Positions 16,386 through 27,850 of a stretch of 64,000 nucleotides of DNA are shown piece by piece. The stretch's first letter is position 1. The number at the start of each line of letters is the position of its first letter. The position numbers and the translations under genes were made by a program. Source of the stretch: Candidatus Woesearchaeota archaeon (GTDB taxonomy: Archaea > Nanobdellota > Nanobdellia > Woesearchaeales > JAAOYA01); assembly GCA_018221105.1 (NCBI GenBank), contig JAAOYA010000008.1, positions 192,648 to 256,647 of the forward strand, read 5' to 3'. Below the pieces are notes generated by a model. The model was not told the origin of the DNA, made no database searches, and was given only the letters and a program-made list of their open reading frames with translations.

Positions 16386-19280
16386 ATGTTTGATGAAGAA
16401 AAAGTAAAGCAAGAAATCAAAATTCTTGTTGATAAATATAATAGACTTTCAGATACAGGTAAAATTAAAAACTATAATGAAGAAAGAACTAAAGCCGAAT
16501 TCATAGAACCTTTATTTGAAACTCTTGGCTGGGATGTCAGAAATAAACATAGTGATGATGAAGTTACAAGAGAAGAAAAAGTTTCAAAAGGTAGAGTAGA
16601 TTATGCATTTAGAATTGATGGAATCCCTAAATTTTTTCTTGAAGCCAAAAAACCAAAAGAAGATTTAGACAATCAAAAACATGTAAAACAAGCAATAGAC
16701 TACGCATGGCACAAAGGTTGCACATGGGCTATTCTAACAAACTTTGAAAGCATAAAAATATTTAATGCAGAAGTCAAAAACATCAATCCATTACAATCAC
16801 AATTTGGACAAACATTTTTCTTTTATGATTTTCTTAACAACTTCGACCAAATATGGCTTTTGTTATCAAGAGAAAGTTTCAAAGAAGGATTAATAGATAA
16901 AGAAGCAGAAAAATGGGGCAAAAAAGCAAAAAAAGTACCTGTTGACAAACAGCTTTTAAACGACCTCACAAATTTTAGGGAATTGCTCTCTAAAAACATC
17001 TTAAAAAATAACTCAGCAAAAAACCTCAGCGGCGATGATTTAGATGAAACTGTCCAAAGAATTTTGGACAGACTAATTTTTATTAGAACACTTGAAGATA
17101 AACAATTAGAAGCACCTATTCTTCAAGCACTTATTAGAGAAGACCAACACAAAAGAGTGTATGCTAAATTAAATTCTTTTTTTAGAAGAATTGATGAAGA
17201 ATACAATAGTAAAATATTCGCGCCCCATTTATGTGAAGAAGTAGTAATTGACAATGAAATTTTAGAGAAAATAATTAGAGGTTTATTTAAAACATCCGAC
17301 AACACTGTTCATTATAATTTTGGAGCTATTGATGCCGATGTTCTTGGAAATATGTATGAACAATACTTAGGACATATATTAAAGAAAACTGATAAAAGAG
17401 CAAAACTAACTGAAGGCAAAGCTCACAGAAAAGAACAAGGAATTTATTACACGCCAACATACATTGTTGATTACATTGTAAAAAACACAATCGGCGAGTT
17501 AGCAAAAAATAAGAAATTTGATTTAAGCAAAATCAAAGTTTTAGACCCTGCTTGCGGGTCAGGATCATTTTTAATAAAAACAGTTGATTATTTAATAGCA
17601 CTAGAAAAAAATCGAAACGGTAATGTTGACCAAACAAAGCTTGACTTAACAGGTGCTTCTGCAACTTATGGCAAAAAAATTGAAATATTAAAAAACAATA
17701 TTTTTGGCGTTGACCTAGACCCCAAAGCTGTTGAGATAGCACAATTAAATCTTCTTCTCAAAGCAGCTGAGAAAAAACACAGATTACCAACTTTGCAAGA
17801 AAACATTAAAATCGGTAATAGTTTAATTGATGACGAAGAAATCGTAGGAAACAAAGCTTTCAAATGGGAAGAACAATTCAAAGAAATAATAGAAGAGGGA
17901 GGCTTTGATGTAGTAATAGGAAATCCCCCATACATAAGAATACAAACATTGGACAAAAATCAAGTAGAATATTTTAACAGAAAATATGAATCACCCACAA
18001 AAAATTATGATATATACCTTCTTTTTATTGAGAAAGGATTCAAACTCTTAAAAGAAAACGGGATCTTAGGATTGATTCTGCCTCATAAGTTCTTTCAAGG
18101 CGAGAGTGGTGAAAAGATAAGGAAGTTTATTTCCGAAAGAAAAGCACTTCATCGAATTGTTGATTTTGGTACAAATCAAATTTTTGAGGATGCTGCTACA
18201 TACACATGTCTTTTATTCTTACAAAAAAAGAATAATCGAGAGTTTTATTACAAAGGTTTTAAATTAGGTGATAACTTCAAAAATTTGATAAAAGCAAAAT
18301 ATGAAAAGAAGAGTATCAATATTCTGAAAGATGAAAAGTGGAATTTTAGCAGTCAGAATATCCAAAAAATTCTGAAAAAAATAAAATCATATGAACAAAA
18401 CTTTAGAGACATTACAAAGAAAATTTTTAAGGGATCATCCACAGGTAATGATGATATATTTCTTCTTGATTTAATTAAAAAAAGTAACAATAAATCACTT
18501 GTTTTCTCTAATGCTCTCAATAAAGAAATAGAACTAGAAAATGATGTTCTCCATCCATTTGTCTACGGAAAAGATATACGAAGATATGGTTTAATTAAAA
18601 ACAATAAATTATTATTGTTTCCTTATCTTCAAAATAAAGACAAAACTGAACTAATTCCTCTCTTAGAACTACAAAAATATTATCCTAAAACATTCATGTA
18701 TCTAAACTCATTAAAGGATGAACTACTTAAAAGAAAACTTGAGATAGATAATAAAAATTTTTATAAATATTCTGCTGCAAGAAGTTTATCTGAATACAAT
18801 CAGCCAAAAATAATGATACCTGATATGTTAGTTAGCAATAGGATAAGCATCGATGAGAAAGGAATATTCTACCATGGACCAGCAATCCACAGTATAGTAT
18901 TTAACGATAAAGTTAAGAATCATAGCCAGCATTTCTATTTAGGAATATTAAATTCTTCGCTTTTCTGGTTCTTCATTTCAAATACTAGCACAGCACTAAG
19001 AGGCGATACGTATAGACTTACTCCTGAATTTTTGTCACCATTTTGTTTTCCTAAAATAGATAAAAAAAATGAGGGAATTTATTATAACATTAGCGATTTC
19101 GTTAAACAAATGTTGAAATTTACAAATAACTTATCAGAAATAGATAATAAACAAACGGATGAAAAAGCTCGTCTGGAAAAACAAATCCAAAAAATTGATG
19201 ATGATATTGACCAATCGGTTTACAAGCTTTATGGTATAACAAAAGAAGAACAAGAGATTATTGAAGAGAGTCTAAAATGA
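16386..19280 (+). CDS. type IIG (MmeI/Eco57I-like) restriction-modification enzyme: N-terminal PD-(D/E)xK nuclease + gamma-class N6-adenine MTase + TRD
   Basis: N-terminal HsdR_N-like nuclease motifs (ERTKAEFIEPLFETLGW, GRVDYAF, FFLEAKKP giving D...ExK). MTase motifs YYTPTYIVDYIV, VLDPACGSGSFL (motif I), GNPPYI (motif IV). C-terminal LYGITKEEQEIIEESLK helix typical of TaqI/Eco57I-type C-terminal domains. 964 aa in a single polypeptide. Confidence 0.7.
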   Translation: MFDEEKVKQEIKILVDKYNRLSDTGKIKNYNEERTKAEFIEPLFETLGWDVRNKHSDDEVTREEKVSKGRVDYAFRIDGIPKFFLEAKKPKEDLDNQKHVKQAIDYAWHKGCTWAILTNFESIKIFNAEVKNINPLQSQFGQTFFFYDFLNNFDQIWLLLSRESFKEGLIDKEAEKWGKKAKKVPVDKQLLNDLTNFRELLSKNILKNNSAKNLSGDDLDETVQRILDRLIFIRTLEDKQLEAPILQALIREDQHKRVYAKLNSFFRRIDEEYNSKIFAPHLCEEVVIDNEILEKIIRGLFKTSDNTVHYNFGAIDADVLGNMYEQYLGHILKKTDKRAKLTEGKAHRKEQGIYYTPTYIVDYIVKNTIGELAKNKKFDLSKIKVLDPACGSGSFLIKTVDYLIALEKNRNGNVDQTKLDLTGASATYGKKIEILKNNIFGVDLDPKAVEIAQLNLLLKAAEKKHRLPTLQENIKIGNSLIDDEEIVGNKAFKWEEQFKEIIEEGGFDVVIGNPPYIRIQTLDKNQVEYFNRKYESPTKNYDIYLLFIEKGFKLLKENGILGLILPHKFFQGESGEKIRKFISERKALHRIVDFGTNQIFEDAATYTCLLFLQKKNNREFYYKGFKLGDNFKNLIKAKYEKKSINILKDEKWNFSSQNIQKILKKIKSYEQNFRDITKKIFKGSSTGNDDIFLLDLIKKSNNKSLVFSNALNKEIELENDVLHPFVYGKDIRRYGLIKNNKLLLFPYLQNKDKTELIPLLELQKYYPKTFMYLNSLKDELLKRKLEIDNKNFYKYSAARSLSEYNQPKIMIPDMLVSNRISIDEKGIFYHGPAIHSIVFNDKVKNHSQHFYLGILNSSLFWFFISNTSTALRGDTYRLTPEFLSPFCFPKIDKKNEGIYYNISDFVKQMLKFTNNLSEIDNKQTDEKARLEKQIQKIDDDIDQSVYKLYGITKEEQEIIEESLK

Positions 19281-20662
19281 CGAATACTATAACTGCTTCT
19301 CATTTTTATGATTATGTTCAATGTCCTTACAGAGTTTACCTGGATATTTTCGCAGACGAAAAAGAAAAGGTTGAGATTTCTGAGTTCATGCTCAAAAAAA
19401 TGGAAGATGGCGTATTTCACGAAAAAGATGTTATTAAAGATGAAGACTTCTTAGAAATAGAAGCATTAACTCTTGAGGAAGGCTTTAAAGAAACAGTTAA
19501 AGCTATGAAGAATGGTGACGAGCTTATTTATCAGGGTGTTTTATTGAATGATGACTTTATTGGAAAACCTGACTTACTAATAAAAAAAGAAGGAAAATCA
19601 AAATTTGGAAACTATTTTTATGTACCTGCTGATATTAAATCAGGAAAGAGACTTAAGGATGAGTATATCATGCAAGTAATGTTTTATTGCGAGTTATTAA
19701 ATTTTATACAAGATAACTTTCCAAAAAAAGGAATTGTAATTAACATTGAAAAAGAAGAACTTGAGTTTAACACAGTTGAATATAAAGAACAGTATGAGCA
19801 GATGTTAACCGCTATTAAACAAATAGTTAATGGAAAAAAAGAAGAGCCAGTTTATTGTTCAGATTGTAATGAGTGTGTCTGGCAAGAACTTTGTTTTAAA
19901 GAACTAGAACAAAAACAAGATGTTTCATTATTGTATAGGCTTGGACGTTCTGTTAAAAATAAACTCATTCCTTTAGGCATTAATAATCTAACAGATTTAA
20001 GAAAATCTGATACTGCTAAATTATTAGAAGTTAAAGGAATAGGCGAGAAATCAGTTAAGAAATGGAAATTAATGGCTGAAGCAATACAAGAAAAGAAAAT
20101 GTTTGTTATCGAAAAACCATCTCTTCAAAATAAAAAAGTTGAAATATTTTTTGACATAGAAGGTGAGCCTGAATTAGATATTGATTATTTGTATGGTTGT
20201 TTGATTAGAATTGATGGTAAAGAAGAATTCAAATATTTCTGGGCTGAAAAACCCTCTGATGAGGGTAAAATGTGGAAGTTGTTCTGTGAATTCATTGATT
20301 CTTGTAATGATGATCTTGCTATTTATCATTATGCTTCGTATGAAAAAACCGCATTAAAAAAGATGAAAGAACGATACGGATGCACAGAAAAAACATTCGA
20401 CAAAATAATCAATAACCTGGTAGATTTATTTCCAGTGGTAACCAATTCTGTCGTCTTACCCGTATATTCTTATTCGTTAAAACCCATTGCTAAATGGTTA
20501 GACTTTAAGTGGAAAGATTCAAAAGCAGGAGGCGCGCAATCTATGTTCTGGTACTCTCGCTATTTAGACGGCGAAACTGATTTTAAACAAACAATAATCG
20601 ATTACAATAAAGACGATGTTATTGCCACAAGAATCCTAAAAGATTGGTTAATAAATTTATAA
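19277..20662 (+). CDS. TM0106-family RecB-like nuclease (Cas4-like Fe-S nuclease domain + C-terminal RNase-H-like domain)
   Basis: N-terminal Cys (YDYVQCPYRVYL), PD-(D/E)xK-like GKPDLLI...YVPADIKSGK, C-terminal Cys triad CSDCNECVWQELC (Cas4/DUF83 cysteine arrangement). Then IFFDIEGEP...YHYASYEK...DDVIAT as in RNase_H_2 (DnaQ-like fold) domains of the TM0106 family. ATGA overlap with the RM gene. Confidence 0.6.
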   Translation: MTNTITASHFYDYVQCPYRVYLDIFADEKEKVEISEFMLKKMEDGVFHEKDVIKDEDFLEIEALTLEEGFKETVKAMKNGDELIYQGVLLNDDFIGKPDLLIKKEGKSKFGNYFYVPADIKSGKRLKDEYIMQVMFYCELLNFIQDNFPKKGIVINIEKEELEFNTVEYKEQYEQMLTAIKQIVNGKKEEPVYCSDCNECVWQELCFKELEQKQDVSLLYRLGRSVKNKLIPLGINNLTDLRKSDTAKLLEVKGIGEKSVKKWKLMAEAIQEKKMFVIEKPSLQNKKVEIFFDIEGEPELDIDYLYGCLIRIDGKEEFKYFWAEKPSDEGKMWKLFCEFIDSCNDDLAIYHYASYEKTALKKMKERYGCTEKTFDKIINNLVDLFPVVTNSVVLPVYSYSLKPIAKWLDFKWKDSKAGGAQSMFWYSRYLDGETDFKQTIIDYNKDDVIATRILKDWLINL

Positions 20663-20697
20663 TTTCTCACTGGTCACTGGACATTCACGACTAAAGT

Positions 20698-20707
20698 TTA
20701 TATATCA
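20698..20707 (+). promoter_or_regulatory. candidate TATA box for a leaderless PRTase/DprA-like transcript
   Basis: tttatatatc centred about 25 nt upstream of ATG 20727. Spacing fits an archaeal leaderless mRNA. Confidence 0.3.
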
Positions 20708-20726
20708 ATAATGCTTTATAAGTCCG

Positions 20727-21401
20727 ATGTCAGAGTATATAGTTCGTTATGCTGCTTCAAAAAAATTGTATCCTAAAGAGATATTGATATTTGCTTTAGA
20801 CTATTACAAATCATTAGAGTCAGGAGAAGATGATTTTTCAAGGAAGCTAATATATTTTTATAAGTATGGTAATAATCTTGATTATTTCTTAGAGAATCTT
20901 CTTCAATTATTTACGCTAAGATTCAAAGACGACGCAATTAAATTTGATTTAGTAACAATATATCCCACTCATAAAAAAGATTCATTAAACCTTAATATGA
21001 TTTCATTGATAGAATCATTTAGCAAAAACTCAGGTTTACAATACAATCAAATTATTAGAAGAATAAAAACAATAAAATCAAACCATGAATGTAAGTCATT
21101 TGAGGAAAGAAAAGAGAATGTTAAAGACTCTATCGAAATAACTGGAGATGTCAAAGGGAAAAATATTATTCTAGTCGATAATACTTCCACCACAGGAATA
21201 TCTTTAATTGATGCCACAAATCTATTATATGAAAAAGGAGTAAATATGGTTGTTTGTGTCTGTCTTGGCTTAAGTGAAAAAGAAAAGGAAAAAGATTGGA
21301 AAGATATTAACAAAACTTTAAAATACTCAAAAATCCTAACATTTTGTAAAAGCCCGTTTATTTCGGAAGAAGAGCGTAAAAAATGGAAGATGAAAAAATA
21401 A
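20727..21401 (+). CDS. phosphoribosyltransferase-domain protein (ShosT-like / ComFC-like)
   Basis: C-terminal type I PRTase PRPP-binding motif NIILVDNTSTTGISLIDATNLL. 224 aa. Overlaps the downstream DprA-like gene by 19 nt. Confidence 0.5.
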   Translation: MSEYIVRYAASKKLYPKEILIFALDYYKSLESGEDDFSRKLIYFYKYGNNLDYFLENLLQLFTLRFKDDAIKFDLVTIYPTHKKDSLNLNMISLIESFSKNSGLQYNQIIRRIKTIKSNHECKSFEERKENVKDSIEITGDVKGKNIILVDNTSTTGISLIDATNLLYEKGVNMVVCVCLGLSEKEKEKDWKDINKTLKYSKILTFCKSPFISEEERKKWKMKK

Positions 21402-22258
21402 TAAAACTAATCTCGCTAAAGGAAGTTAAAGGGTATGGTAATAAAAAAGTTCTTGAAATAGTTTCAAACTATAAAAATTTGGATACTGTATTTCTTTCTC
21501 TTTTAAACAAGGGCGTTATTAGAAAAGAACATGTAGAAAAAGCCAAAGAAATTATGAAGCAGTGTAAAAATTCAGAAATAGAGATAATAACTTATTTTGA
21601 TAAAAAATATCCTCAAAAACTAAAACAAATGAATATTCCTCCAATATTATTGTTTGCTAAAGGAGATACAAGTTTATTAAACAAAATTTCAATTTCGATT
21701 GTTGGTACAAGAAAGTCATCTCAAAAAAGCATTGAGTGGGCATATAATATGTCCAAAAAATTATCAGAGGAAGGATATATTGTTGTTAGTGGTGGAGCTA
21801 TAGGAATAGACATCTCAGCGCATAAGGGTATACTTAATTCAAAAGGAAAAACGATTTGTGTTTTAGGCTCTGGAATAAATAATATTTATCCAAAAGAAAA
21901 TGAAAAAACAATTAATATAATAATGAAAGAAGGTCTTGTTATTTCTGAGTGCCCGCCTAAAAATAATCCTAATGAGTTCTCTCTTCTTGAAAGAAATAGG
22001 ATTACATCAGGTCTTGGAGATAATATTATAATAGTTTCTATGGACACTAAAGGAGGAACTATTTCCCAATACAAAACCGCGAGAATTCAAAAAAAGAAGA
22101 TATTTTGTCCGCATCCTTCTCTTAACTTAGAGCCAAATGAAGGCATAAAAAAAATACTAGCAACGGATAATAATATAAAACTAATTAAAGACATTCACGA
22201 AATAAAAAATTATTTATTATCTAGAAATAATCAGAAGATTCTTGAAAATTTTGTATGA
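21383..22258 (+). CDS. DprA/Smf-like (SLOG Rossmann) protein (ShosA-like)
   Basis: ISIVGTRKSSQKSIEWAYNMSKKLSEEGYIVVSGGAIGIDISAHKG matches the DprA Rossmann core (GsR...G...vSGgA.GiD..ah). 291 aa. Confidence 0.65.
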   Translation: MEDEKIIKLISLKEVKGYGNKKVLEIVSNYKNLDTVFLSLLNKGVIRKEHVEKAKEIMKQCKNSEIEIITYFDKKYPQKLKQMNIPPILLFAKGDTSLLNKISISIVGTRKSSQKSIEWAYNMSKKLSEEGYIVVSGGAIGIDISAHKGILNSKGKTICVLGSGINNIYPKENEKTINIIMKEGLVISECPPKNNPNEFSLLERNRITSGLGDNIIIVSMDTKGGTISQYKTARIQKKKIFCPHPSLNLEPNEGIKKILATDNNIKLIKDIHEIKNYLLSRNNQKILENFV

Positions 22259-22542
22259 ATTAAAATTTGAAGCAAATAATCTTTATACAACCATTACAAA
22301 TGATCTATATTAAGTTTGGAACTCAAAAAGAGTCTAATAATGAAACAACAAAGATTTTTAAAAGGGTTTGTGCTCCACCAATAACTGTTTAGCTTATTGC
22401 TCTAAACAACAAAAATAATAGTAGCACAAAAATTAGTGTTGCTTCTGTCATTAAAGAATAAATTTTCTTTTTTTTACTGTTGTCATTGCCACTCCAGCGC
22501 TTGTCATAATTGATCATTGGCCAGGGTAATTAGAAGTTGTTT

Positions 22543-23561: not shown

Positions 23562-24569
23562 TTATCCAATACTATCTAATATATTGTGTGCGTTAGTGGA
23601 GCGCTCTAATTGTTCTATAATACTTTTTTGTTCTTTTGCCTTTGCTAAAATGCTTGTTTTGTATAATTCTTTTTGTCTGTTTGTAACACGTGCTAGTTTA
23701 TCGACAAATACTAAGCCATAAGGATAACCTAGAAATGCTGGGTCGCTTGAATTAATTGCCAGAGTGTTTGCAATACTTTCAATATTTTGGCTGAAAGTTT
23801 CAATTTTGAAGATGTAATTGCTTTTTTTGTGCAATCGCGAAAAAAAGATTATTGGATTTTCTTCGATTTTAGCATTTATTTTTGCTGTTGGGTGATAATA
23901 CCACGCGCTAGGCTCTTGTGATAGTATAAAAGAAGCGCTTCGGCCACTGTCAGTAAACAATGTGTTAGTTTTGCAAAAGCCCACAAGTTGAGTATTTTGC
24001 TCTTTGGCTTTTTGATGTAATTTTACAATTTTTTCTTTCTCGCCATTAAATGTTGGTTTTAGTGAGCCGTCAAGCACTAATAGTCCTCCGTTGACTTTTT
24101 CAATATTTCTTGTTGCATAATCGATTTCTGCAAATCGTCGCAGCATGTCAGCCACTGTATTAATGCTTGCTTGCTCCTGACCTTTTTTTATTGTAGAATC
24201 GTAAGAGTCAATACTAAAGGGTTGAAAACTATCATCAAATGATTGTGCGACAAATCTGGTTTTTCCATCTTCGATTTTTGTTGTTATCAAAGCAAAAAAT
24301 TCCTTTTTTTCGAAAAAAACTCTTTTATCTCCAAGGTATCCCACAATACAAAGTCTTATTAGTTGAGCGCAAAAATTTGATCCTTCAATAATTGACGCGT
24401 TTCCTCCGTCGACAAAAAAAGTTTTTGTATTGCTGTTTTGGTTTTTTATTGGTTGAAAATATTTTTTATTAAATGGTACTGGAATATAATCTGGATTATT
24501 AAAAAGTATTTTTTGACCCTCAATACCAACTTGTTGTTTTGTTAACTCGGCCACTATTTTTTCAAACAT
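23562..24569 (-). CDS. hypothetical protein, possibly NurA-like nuclease fold
   Basis: Two DG(G/S) motifs (FFVDGGNASI and LLVLDGSL) spaced as in NurA 5'-3' nuclease domains. No HerA partner in the window. Weak assignment. Confidence 0.3.
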   Translation of the reverse strand: MFEKIVAELTKQQVGIEGQKILFNNPDYIPVPFNKKYFQPIKNQNSNTKTFFVDGGNASIIEGSNFCAQLIRLCIVGYLGDKRVFFEKKEFFALITTKIEDGKTRFVAQSFDDSFQPFSIDSYDSTIKKGQEQASINTVADMLRRFAEIDYATRNIEKVNGGLLVLDGSLKPTFNGEKEKIVKLHQKAKEQNTQLVGFCKTNTLFTDSGRSASFILSQEPSAWYYHPTAKINAKIEENPIIFFSRLHKKSNYIFKIETFSQNIESIANTLAINSSDPAFLGYPYGLVFVDKLARVTNRQKELYKTSILAKAKEQKSIIEQLERSTNAHNILDSIG

Positions 24570-25609: not shown

Positions 25610-27850
25610 ATGAGTTATGAATTACTAATTACTGAAAAGCCAAGTGCTGCACAAAAAATTGCTACAGCGCTAGCAGACACTAAACCAACCAGAAAAGGTG
25701 ATAAAGGAGTCTATTATTATGAATTAAAACATAATAAAAAAAATCTTATTGTAACTTGTGCTGTTGGTCACTTGTATACTGTTGCAGAAAAGAACAAGTC
25801 AAAAGGTTGGACTTATCCTGTTTTTGAAACTGAATGGTTAGAAAGCTCAAAAGCCAATAAGGCAAGCGCTTTTACAGCAAAATATTTGAATACCATAAAA
25901 AAACTTGCAAAAAACGCTAGTTCTTTTATTGTCGCTACAGACTATGATATTGAAGGTGAAGTAATAGGTTATAACGTAATAAAATATGCTTGCAAGCAAA
26001 AAGATGCAAAAAGAATGAAGTATTCTACTTTAACAAAAGACGAGCTTATTAGTTCTTTTGAAAATGTTTCAAAACATTTAATTTGGGGTCAAGTACATGC
26101 TGGTGTGACACGCCACGAACTTGACTGGATTTATGGCATTAATCTTTCTCGTGCTCTTTCACAATCAATAAAAGCTGGTGGTGGAGGATTTAAGATTTTA
26201 AGTAGTGGTCGTGTTCAAGGACCTGCACTTAAAATAATTGTTGATAAAGAAAAAGATATTAAGGCTTTTATTCCAACTCCTTACTGGCAGATTCCTCTTG
26301 AGGGCGAAAGAGTTAAAGAAAATTTTGTTGCAATGCACCAAACTGAAAAATTTGAAGATCAAAAAATTGCAAAAAAAGTTTATGATGCTGTAAAAAATCA
26401 AAAGACTGCTGATGTTGCAAACATTAAAAAGAATCAGTTTAAACAAAATCCTCCAACACCATTTGACCTTACATCATTACAATTAGAAGCTCACAGAACT
26501 TTAGGTATTGCGCCAAAGCAAACGTTAGATATCGCGCAAAAATTGTATATTGATGGTTTAATTTCTTATCCTAGAACATCATCGCAAAAACTTCCGCAAA
26601 GCTTGGGTTTTAAAAAGATTTTAGAAAAGCTTTCAAAGCAAGCTGAGTTCAAAAAAGAAACTGCTAAACTTTTAGCGCTACCTGCACTAAAACCTAATGA
26701 AGGCAAAAAAATTGATGACGCCCACCCTGCAATTTATCCTACTGGCCAAGCAAAAAAATTAGATGGTCGTGACAATTCAATGTACGAGCTTATTGTTAGA
26801 AGGTTCTTTGCAGTATTTGGCGAGCCAGCAACTCGTGAAACAATGACTGTGACATTAGATGTTAAAAAAGAACCTTTTATTGTCAAAGGCACTAGAACTA
26901 TTGATCCTGGATGGCACGAGTATTATGGTCGTTTTGTACAACAAAAAGATGAAGAATTGCCAGGTTTTGTTGAAGGTGAAAGTGTTACTGTTAACAAAAT
27001 TTCTTTTGATAAAAAAATGACTAAGCCACCGAACCGTTATACTGCGGCTTCAATTATCAAAGAATTAGAGAAAAGAAATCTTGGAACAAAAGCCACAAGA
27101 GCTCAAATTGTAGAAAATTTATATGATAGAGGTTATGTAAATGATAAGTCTATTGAAGCTACAGAACTCGGAATTAAAACTTATGATATTTTAGTAAAAT
27201 ATAGTCCAGAAATACTTGATGAAAAACTAACAAGACATTTTGAAGATGAAATGGAACTTATAAAAAAAGAAAAATCAACTCCTACAAAAGTTCTTGATCA
27301 CGCAAAAGAAGTTCTGACCAAAGTATTGAAAGATTTTAAGGCTAAAGAAAAAGAAATTGGCAAAGAATTAGCCGCCGCTAATAAAGAAACTATTAATGAA
27401 GCCACTAATCTTGGAAAGTGCCCAGAGTGCAAAAAAGGTGATTTGCAAATTAGAAGAGGAAAATTTGGAAATTTTGTTGCTTGCAACAAATACCCTGATT
27501 GTAAAACAACTTATGGTTTGCCTGGTGGCGCAAAGTTTAGACCTGCAAAGAAAATGTGTGAGGAGTGCAGTCTTCCAATGATTGTTGCTATGAGAGCTAG
27601 AAAAAAACCAATGGAGCTTTGTATTAATCCTAAGTGTCCTTCTAGAGAGCCTACTGATCCTGAAGTTTTAAAAGAAGAACGAGAGCTAGAAAAAAAGATT
27701 GTTGAAAAAGAATGTCCAAAGTGTGGTGAGCCATTAATTGTTAGAAGCAGTTTGTATGGTAAATTTTTAGGTTGTAGTAAATTTCCAAAATGTCGCCATA
27801 CTGAACGATTGCAGGATGGCCCTCTAAAAGAGGACTTTAAAAAGAAATAG
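25610..27850 (+). CDS. topA: DNA topoisomerase I (type IA) with C-terminal zinc ribbons
   Basis: Toprim N-terminus (LLITEKPSAA...VATDYDIEGE), catalytic-region motifs (GLISYPRTSSQKL), three C-terminal CxxC...CxxC zinc ribbons. 746 aa. Confidence 0.9.
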   Translation: MSYELLITEKPSAAQKIATALADTKPTRKGDKGVYYYELKHNKKNLIVTCAVGHLYTVAEKNKSKGWTYPVFETEWLESSKANKASAFTAKYLNTIKKLAKNASSFIVATDYDIEGEVIGYNVIKYACKQKDAKRMKYSTLTKDELISSFENVSKHLIWGQVHAGVTRHELDWIYGINLSRALSQSIKAGGGGFKILSSGRVQGPALKIIVDKEKDIKAFIPTPYWQIPLEGERVKENFVAMHQTEKFEDQKIAKKVYDAVKNQKTADVANIKKNQFKQNPPTPFDLTSLQLEAHRTLGIAPKQTLDIAQKLYIDGLISYPRTSSQKLPQSLGFKKILEKLSKQAEFKKETAKLLALPALKPNEGKKIDDAHPAIYPTGQAKKLDGRDNSMYELIVRRFFAVFGEPATRETMTVTLDVKKEPFIVKGTRTIDPGWHEYYGRFVQQKDEELPGFVEGESVTVNKISFDKKMTKPPNRYTAASIIKELEKRNLGTKATRAQIVENLYDRGYVNDKSIEATELGIKTYDILVKYSPEILDEKLTRHFEDEMELIKKEKSTPTKVLDHAKEVLTKVLKDFKAKEKEIGKELAAANKETINEATNLGKCPECKKGDLQIRRGKFGNFVACNKYPDCKTTYGLPGGAKFRPAKKMCEECSLPMIVAMRARKKPMELCINPKCPSREPTDPEVLKEERELEKKIVEKECPKCGEPLIVRSSLYGKFLGCSKFPKCRHTERLQDGPLKEDFKKK

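Follow-up and report, generated by a model that had tools for sequence, protein, structure and literature searches.

The gene pair and its probable promoter region

We analysed a 64,000-nucleotide stretch (hereafter the window) of contig JAAOYA010000008.1, which belongs to a metagenome-assembled genome of Candidatus Woesearchaeota, a DPANN archaeon, and focused on two adjacent genes encoding a phosphoribosyltransferase (PRTase) and a DprA-like protein. The archaeal nature of the host is also evident from aIF2-alpha, aIF5B, Trm1 and NurA among the flanking genes. Together with its homologues, the pair constitutes a horizontally mobile two-gene unit, probably translationally coupled and driven by a single promoter, which resides in defence and mobile-element contexts. 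Both open reading frames (ORFs) and their short overlap were found exactly where a first-pass annotation, made from the sequence letters, had placed them (Table 1), and the overlap suggests translational coupling. The same annotation had compared the pair to ShosTA, a toxin-antitoxin (TA) and anti-phage system. The composition it gave for that system, a PRTase plus a DprA-like protein, agrees with the literature (PMC11961720; PMC12961424; bioRxiv 10.1101/2022.05.11.491447), and the PADLOC ShosT and ShosA profiles indeed match the two genes.

Table 1. Positions of the gene pair, its signals and the genes directly upstream in the window (PRPP, phosphoribosyl pyrophosphate; PIP, PCNA-interacting peptide; RM, restriction-modification)
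Feature	Position	Strand	Description
PRTase gene	20727..21401	+	224 aa; ComF/ShosT-type phosphoribosyltransferase, putative toxin; no zinc finger, no pyrophosphatase domain
DprA-like (ShosA-like) gene	21383..22258	+	291 aa, putative antitoxin; N-terminal SAM/HhH helical domain (~residues 1-63) and DprA Rossmann fold
Gene overlap	21383..21401	+	19 nt common to the PRTase and DprA-like ORFs
PRPP-binding loop codons	21165..21203	+	residues 147-159 (IILVDNTSTTGIS), with D151-N152
C-terminal tail codons	22232..22255	+	QKILENFV, residues 284-291 of the DprA-like protein; PIP-box-like, low confidence (probably disordered)
Tandem CACTGGTCACTGGACA motif	20668..20683	+	core ACTGG[AT]C, 7-nt period; candidate binding site of a transcription factor, or operator; marks the conserved module's left edge
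TATA box TTTATATA	20697..20704	+	preceded by AAAG; ends 23 nt 5' of the PRTase ATG
Type IIG RM enzyme gene	16386-19280	+	964 aa; PADLOC 1.6e-188
TM0106-family RecB/Cas4-like nuclease gene	19277-20662	+	461 aa; TIGR03491 1.2e-113

A TATA-like element upstream of the pair, already pointed out in the annotation, has similarly spaced counterparts (TTTATATA, ATATAAAT or TTTAAAT) in most of the homologous loci and probably works as an archaeal promoter. Its closeness to the PRTase start codon implies a leaderless or nearly leaderless transcript. Approximately 10-13 nt 5' of the TATA box lies the motif CACTGGACA, which was found on the forward strand 42-59 nt 5' of the PRTase ATG in nine of twelve family loci, and which in four of these loci is repeated in tandem every 7 nt (the window, L001, L009 and L014; L numbers are our handles for homologous loci, P numbers those for proteins). 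The loci carrying this motif otherwise have unrelated flanks, and no conservation across the family loci was seen upstream of it. Over the window as a whole the 9-mer shows no enrichment, so the signal stems from its fixed position. The motif accompanies the cassette from locus to locus and is a candidate binding site for a regulator. Neither a conserved right-hand boundary nor an inverted copy of the motif was found 3' of the DprA-like gene, and scans of the window for tRNA genes and Rfam families returned nothing. A sigma-70 promoter and terminator scan gave output at noise level and was discarded as not applicable to an archaeon.

The two encoded proteins

The AlphaFold 2 (AF2) model of the first protein (predicted local distance difference test, pLDDT, 92.3; predicted TM-score 0.89) adopts a type I PRTase fold, in agreement with a Pfam Pribosyltran match above the gathering score (6.7e-07), so that the fold proposed in the annotation holds. 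A PRTase domain is the only domain in the model; a short beta-hairpin forms the N-terminus, and helices lie at the C-terminus. Three E. coli ShosT structures lead its Foldseek ranking (E 1e-05, TM-score 0.56), H. pylori ComF comes next (7e-05, TM-score 0.57), and ordinary salvage PRTases are all clearly more distant. By its modelled fold the protein hence belongs to the ComF/ShosT branch of PRTases, and the fold alone cannot choose between ShosT and ComF. The PADLOC ShosT profile PDLC03962 matches the protein at 4.2e-13 (positions 81-218 of 237). We dropped this match as a discriminator and relied on the scoring of reference fragments instead, because ComF-sized and multidomain relatives match the ShosT and PsyrT profiles equally well. 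The N-terminal four-cysteine zinc finger of ComFC, as in the H. pylori ComF structure 7p0h, is absent: the first cysteine is residue 122, and in the model the N-terminus folds as a beta-hairpin.

The string ILVDNTSTTG, which the annotation had called a canonical PRPP-binding loop, occupies residues 148-157. The loop is present, but it is not canonical, since its second acidic residue is replaced by asparagine (DN instead of DD). This replacement is a property of the family: DN was found in 55 of 55 aligned members, whereas 115 of 115 more distant relatives have DD. Other positions conserved in ComF-type proteins are retained (P80, N88, R112, H120, R128, N131, S135 and T155-G157), so that we take the enzyme to be modified but still active, not dead. 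A C-terminal extension (residues 184-224) with the conserved pattern D190..D193-x-N-x-TLKYS is a family-specific feature. Among remote relatives, the PRTase profile comes nearest to PRTase domains at the C-terminus of large multidomain proteins (E 1e-31 to 1e-20); proteins of ComF size reach it only at ~1e-17 or worse, and the N-terminal strands are missing in them. Among these remote relatives, the representatives P0178-P0233 are proteins of 300-2249 aa which carry the PRTase kin at the C-terminus together with cold-shock, helix-hairpin-helix or pentapeptide-repeat domains, pointing to a large and mostly undescribed set of ShosT/PsyrT-like multidomain proteins.

The second protein matches Pfam DNA_processg_A at 9e-60 and the PADLOC ShosA profile PDLC03961 over its full length (8.3e-65, positions 13-294 of 303), and its AF2 model (pLDDT 93.6) comprises four N-terminal helices (SAM/HhH-like), the DprA Rossmann fold, a helix at residues 272-282 and a low-confidence tail. 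Foldseek places ShosA (8zva) on top at 2.2e-20, followed by true DprAs at ~4e-18, with LOG enzymes at ~1e-4 to 1e-5. The sequence search against the Protein Data Bank (PDB) with phmmer gave ShosA (9vzo/8zva) at 3e-33, the DprAs of H. pylori, S. pneumoniae and R. palustris at 6.5e-25 to 4e-19, and a LOG-like match at 0.0015. Whether the protein might group with LOG enzymes, a doubt raised in the annotation, can thus be answered: it groups with ShosA and DprA (Foldseek 2e-20 to 1e-17; LOG ~1e-4).

To which of these two it is closer was judged by a control in which the same domain region of reference proteins was scored on the TIGR00732 dprA profile (equivalog cut-off 191.15 bits) and on the PADLOC ShosA profile. 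H. pylori DprA obtained 230.9 and 146.4 bits, respectively, and E. coli ShosA 172.4 and 267.7 bits; the window protein, with 169.7-186.6 bits on dprA and 185.4-211.6 bits on ShosA, behaves in sequence scoring like ShosA, by a modest margin. In the NCBIfam search it narrowly misses the dprA cut-off (185.9 bits). The combination of a score below the equivalog cut-off and a preference for the ShosA profile places it on the ShosA side.

Residues R139, R234 and R261, which bind single-stranded DNA (ssDNA) and are essential in ShosA (PMC12961424), correspond to R110, R204 and K231 here and are kept in 48 of 48, 48 of 48 and 44 of 48 homologues. Of the RecA contacts, R206 corresponds to T176 and K200 to K171 (lysine in 25 of the 48 homologues); the dimer-interface residues L181/F182 correspond to N152/S153. 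If the partner is archaeal RadA, such divergence at the RecA-contact and dimer residues would be expected. The annotation had further asked for a C-terminal DNA-binding domain as in true DprA. No such winged-helix (DML1-like) domain follows the Rossmann fold. This domain is also missing from S. pneumoniae DprA (structure 3uqz, 282 aa) and is therefore not family-defining.

The DprA-like protein ends in QKILENFV, with pLDDT values of 56 and 43 for the last residues. In archaea the PCNA-interacting peptide has the consensus Qxx[LIM]xx[FY][FYWL], with which the tail sequence agrees. Counting the pattern Q..[LIMV]..[FYW] within the last 10 residues, we found it in 41 of 120 DprA-like homologues (16 of the 31 closest), in contrast to 0 of 176 PRTases, 0 of 120 aldolases and 1 of 67 window ORFs, the single one being the DprA-like protein itself. 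At replication forks, the tail would probably anchor the protein to the sliding clamp, PCNA. A literature search found no report tying DprA-like proteins to a PIP box or to PCNA in archaea, and the C-terminus of a DPANN PolB (from L016), tried as a local PIP-box reference, was uninformative.

Conservation of the cassette and its genomic surroundings

The annotation had made its reading conditional on the two genes being neighbours in related genomes, and they are: a PRTase gene followed by an adjacent DprA-like gene occurs in 13 independent loci, with changing neighbours. The DprA-like gene lies directly 3' of the PRTase gene in the window, L001, L002, L004, L006, L008, L009, L011, L013 and L016, where the overlap usually amounts to 19-32 nt; counted over 12 loci, overlaps of 1-32 nt are found in eight and the remaining genes are spaced by at most 13 nt. 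Furthermore, pairwise identities of the PRTases and of the DprA-like proteins are correlated (Pearson 0.82, Spearman 0.88; 66 non-independent pairs from 12 loci). A second, more distant subfamily combines a PRTase-like protein of 181-188 aa with a DprA-like protein in L012, L017 and the P0135 locus. Its loop reads LLLDD.KA[GE]GD, without TTG, and hhalign relates it to the main family with 98% probability; its pairs at L012:4421-5918 and L017:115-1613, each with a 188-aa PRTase, are devoid of the CACTGGACA promoter motif.

The PRTase family is small, comprising 28 proteins in a collection of 5.8 billion proteins; of 1.84 billion cluster representatives, 32 clusters are reached at E 1e-30. It is present in two of 185,579 species genomes, one of Woesearchaeota and one of Candidatus Iainarchaeum, and on three further metagenome contigs. 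A few members deviate from the common arrangement. P0061 (401 aa, on a 1.9-kb contig) is an in-frame PRTase–DprA-like fusion that keeps the DN loop and is cut at both contig ends; it may be natural or have been created by misassembly where the two genes overlap. In L015 (4031-4857) a deletion of 1 nt breaks the PRTase gene in two; the gene is also truncated at its C-terminal end and is followed by RNase HII with no DprA-like gene; this remnant could be a decayed toxin left without its antitoxin, or reflect a sequencing error, given that the contig has only ~4x coverage. The most divergent member (P0027, 42% identity; L005:6001-6893) is followed by a 90-aa HTH_27 protein instead of a DprA-like one, which may be a swapped partner acting as antitoxin or regulator.

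In the window, the pair directly follows a type IIG RM enzyme and a RecB-like nuclease, so the defence-island setting described in the annotation is real. The four genes (16386-22258) form a 5.9-kb low-GC island (GC 0.293 versus 0.328 in the rest of the window), the lowest in GC of 117 windows of the same size. The RM and nuclease genes overlap by 4 nt (ATGA), which suggests that they form a two-gene operon, and the nuclease, of the TM0106 family, combines a RecB/Cas4-like with an RNase-H-like part. The island is flanked by housekeeping genes, namely those for FBP aldolase, aIF2-alpha and aIF5B upstream and PfkB and NurA downstream. A test for insertion by synteny found no close genome for comparison, the closest homologue of the flanking aldolase being 53% identical.

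The neighbours change from one locus of the family to the next, with many defence or mobile genes among them. RM systems adjoin the pair in three loci, namely the window and L008 with type IIG enzymes (the latter of 1233 aa, in an unrelated locus) and L006 with a type I system. Integrase genes or fragments lie beside it in L004 and L011, methyltransferase, SLFN/AlbA, SNF2 and PIN-VapB genes near it in L012 and the P0135 locus, and nucleotidyltransferase and RHH genes in L001. From these comparisons the cassette moves as a unit between DPANN genomes, landing among defence and mobile genes.

Some further features of the surroundings are worth recording. The DprA-like and PfkB genes are convergent, and the 284 nt separating them contain a 42-aa ORF (22389-22517, minus strand) with a hydrophobic C-terminal half (…TEATLIFVLLLFLLFRAIS), which could encode a small membrane protein or be a chance ORF. 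The NurA nuclease gene (23562-24569, minus strand) has no adjacent HerA gene. A topoisomerase I gene (25610-27850) lies 3.3 kb downstream of the DprA-like gene; dprA adjoins topA in many bacteria, and the proximity here is probably a coincidence. At L016:31-3166 (minus strand), next to another PRTase/DprA pair, the gene for a family B DNA polymerase is apparently split into ORFs of 598 and 232 aa with a Peptidase_S51-like gene between them.

A probable defence module, rival readings and known relatives

Our analysis leads us to regard the pair as probably a minimal toxin/antitoxin defence operon of the ShosTA/PsyrTA type, adapted to archaea. Adjacent, co-oriented genes matching the ShosT and ShosA profiles are what PADLOC and DefenseFinder operationally define as ShosTA, and this is what the locus contains. 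The second protein has the attributes expected of the antitoxin, including the SAM plus DprA Rossmann fold, the basic triad and a closer relationship to ShosA than to canonical DprA, and the patchy distribution and defence-island or mobile location are those of a defence system. The same reading is favoured by the adjacency in 13 loci with correlated identities, by the in-frame fusion, by the low GC of the island and by the frameshifted PRTase gene of L015, where the DprA-like gene is missing. The surprise voiced in the annotation, that such a pair is unusual for an archaeon, does not hold, as published surveys count ShosTA among the commonest archaeal defence systems (bioRxiv 10.1101/2024.10.26.620412; PMC11291487), and DefenseFinder tables for Asgard archaea include pairs whose ShosT has 179 aa (supplementary file 3 of PMC11291487).

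The single TATA promoter, preceded by the conserved motif, probably drives the PRTase and, via the overlapping frames, the DprA-like protein. By analogy with the mechanism of E. coli ShosTA (PMC11961720; PMC12961424), the PRTase would bind PRPP and consume or mis-transfer phosphoribosyl groups, and its toxicity would arise from disturbed nucleotide pools, replication stress and DNA damage. Following a type IV antitoxin logic, the DprA-like protein would not bind the toxin, but would instead bind ssDNA via the R110/R204/K231 triad and make up for the damage by promoting recombinational repair. Viral shut-off of host expression, or a flood of ssDNA intermediates from viral replication, would lower the activity of the antitoxin and let the PRTase prevail, so that the infected cell stops growing or dies. 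Specific to the archaeal branch would be RadA in place of RecA as the repair partner and the contact between tail and PCNA.

A number of observations weigh against this interpretation. The PRTase is only distant kin of E. coli ShosT: phmmer searches of PDB sequences, including a 28-sequence profile, retrieved only generic PRPP-loop matches and neither ShosT nor ComF, the intermediate representatives P0226 and P0250 provided no sequence bridge to either, and the fold comparison is the sole link of the family to solved ShosT and ComF structures. In addition, the PADLOC ShosT and PsyrT profiles match every ComF-like PRTase tested with similar E-values. The second loop aspartate is an asparagine, whereas the D331/D332 pair is essential for toxicity in E. 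coli, where the D331A/D332A double mutant is non-toxic (PMC11961720; PMC12961424). Also missing is the pyrophosphatase domain of E. coli ShosT; its 164 residues, however, raise toxicity only marginally (PMC11961720) and may therefore be dispensable for systems of the ShosTA kind. With regard to the antitoxin, L181/F182 and the RecA-binding R206 of ShosA are not conserved, the model has slightly higher TM-scores to true DprAs (0.80-0.85) than to ShosA (0.76), a measure that does not discriminate here, and a natural PRTase–DprA fusion would fit poorly with a labile antitoxin. Finally, no relative of the PRTase was found among the viral contigs of IMG/VR, nor any virus or plasmid copy. Given that both the pyrophosphatase domain and the Asp-Asp loop were looked for and found lacking, we file the pair as a variant and not as a plain member of ShosTA.

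The alternative mentioned in the annotation, that the genes are archaeal equivalents of ComFC and DprA, emerges weakened from these data, and we keep it as an unlikely rival. It would see the pair as a recombination-mediator or DNA-uptake system of a DPANN episymbiont, handling incoming or gapped ssDNA and loading RadA, possibly at PCNA-marked forks, in the service of transformation, DNA scavenging or repair. The PRTase has TIGR00201 comF as its top NCBIfam match (6.2e-11), yet its 42.6 bits remain far under the cut-off of 233.55, the zinc finger of ComFC is absent, and the nearest remote kin are C-terminal domains of multidomain proteins instead of ComF-sized ones. Likewise, S. pneumoniae DprA shares the SAM plus Rossmann architecture and the TM-scores to true DprAs are 0.80-0.85; the dprA cut-off is missed by only 5 bits and the NCBI name of the protein is DprA, but control scoring puts it with ShosA. 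comFC and dprA are normally not adjacent in bacteria, which also counts against such a role. A PIP-like tail and a natural fusion would suit a constitutive factor of DNA metabolism, and comEC and dprA are reported to be prevalent in ultra-small prokaryotes (PMC9938205); a core function, however, would be widespread with stable synteny, as opposed to the very sparse distribution and the variable, defence- and mobile-rich neighbourhoods observed. A related and rather doubtful proposal is that the pair is not, or not only, an abortive-infection TA system, but a ComFC/DprA-type recombination mediator wired to the archaeal replisome, in which the DprA-like protein would dock to PCNA via its QxxLxxF tail and load RadA on ssDNA, with the Asp-Asn PRTase as obligate partner. 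If true, PCNA and RadA would for the first time be partners of a DprA-type pathway. The purpose of such a pathway in DPANN archaea could be to take up or scavenge DNA or to repair forks, or it could be a guard triggered by viral hijacking of PCNA.

The same biochemistry could also underlie a pure addiction or stabilisation module with no antiviral role, which would keep an integrated element or the adjacent RM-nuclease island in the genome. The description of the family as a TA system predates any demonstration of a defence role (bioRxiv 10.1101/2022.05.11.491447, citing Kimelman 2012), two loci have integrase genes or fragments beside the pair, the island is low in GC, and one locus holds a PRTase remnant without an antitoxin gene. 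We nevertheless deem this quite improbable: the bacterial homologues protect against phages (PMC11961720; PMC12961424), RM systems stand beside the pair in three loci, and no plasmid or virus copy was found, even if sequence data cannot tell addiction from defence. Far less credible still is ordinary metabolism, with a nucleotide-salvage PRTase beside a LOG-like nucleotide hydrolase and an incidental overlap. DPANN archaea depend on salvage, Pfam shows only the generic Pribosyltran domain on the first protein, and weak SLOG/LDcluster4 and TIGR00725 matches occur on the second. However, LOG structures are at ~1e-4 as against 1e-20 for ShosA and DprA, the ssDNA-binding arginines are invariant, and the family is very rare and found in defence and mobile contexts; on fold distances and the conserved ssDNA-binding residues, we consider this reading largely refuted and dropped it.

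Returning to the ShosTA/PsyrTA-type defence operon that we favour, its relation to known systems can be outlined as follows. Bacterial ComFC (H. pylori ComF, 7p0h) and DprA (3uqz, 4ljk and 3maj) differ from the window proteins in the zinc finger and in the curated comF and dprA cut-offs, which the latter miss, and the window genes are adjacent and overlapping, sporadic and island-borne. Both ShosTA and PsyrTA, in contrast, share the composition of the pair (bioRxiv 10.1101/2022.05.11.491447). In PsyrTA (RqlHI), PsyrT joins a RecQ-like helicase to a PRTase, and PsyrA is DprA-like. The window PRTase matches the C-terminus of the PADLOC PsyrT profile (6.1e-11, positions 553-685 of 689) and the second protein matches PsyrA (4.3e-36), far more weakly than it does ShosA; with 224 aa and no helicase domain, however, the PRTase corresponds only to the last ~135 of the 689 PsyrT positions. 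Also similar are the archaeal pairs called ShosTA by DefenseFinder, for instance a Lokiarchaeles pair of a 325-aa ShosA and a 179-aa ShosT (PMC11291487, supplementary file 3; bioRxiv 10.1101/2024.10.26.620412), in which a short PRTase-only toxin stands beside a DprA-like protein, and which the second DPANN subfamily, with its 188-aa PRTase (L012 and L017), resembles. These are automated calls, and we found no literature description of a toxin lacking the pyrophosphatase domain, a family-wide Asp-Asn loop, the CACTGGACA motif near the TATA box or the PIP-box-like tail.

The best-understood counterpart is E. coli ShosTA (ShosT of 424 aa and ShosA of ~328 aa; PDB 8zvb/8zvc/8zvd, 8zva and 9vzo), which likewise consists of a PRTase gene and a DprA-like gene. 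Of all solved folds, ShosT is one of the two that come nearest to the window PRTase, ShosA is the best PDB sequence match of the DprA-like protein, and the SAM plus Rossmann architecture, the ssDNA-binding Arg/Lys triad, a short disordered C-terminal tail and the defence-island location are common to both. On the other hand, the window toxin is about half the size, without the N-terminal pyrophosphatase domain, has D-N instead of D-D in its PRPP loop and bears the family-specific C-terminal extension, the ShosA dimer-interface residues and R206 are not conserved in its partner, and the host possesses RadA and PCNA, not RecA and a beta-clamp, with a PIP-like motif in the tail. Mechanistic work on ShosTA has so far dealt only with two E. 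coli alleles and a RecA-dependent mechanism. While the locus is otherwise a routine defence-island annotation, its PIP-like tail and CACTGGACA site make specific predictions, which could be tested at little cost. Compared with the E. coli system, the DPANN branch would represent a minimal version, with a PRTase-only toxin, an altered loop, a promoter motif that is carried along with the genes and an antitoxin tail that probably binds PCNA, and could reveal which parts of the mechanism are essential and how it was rewired for archaeal replication and recombination proteins.

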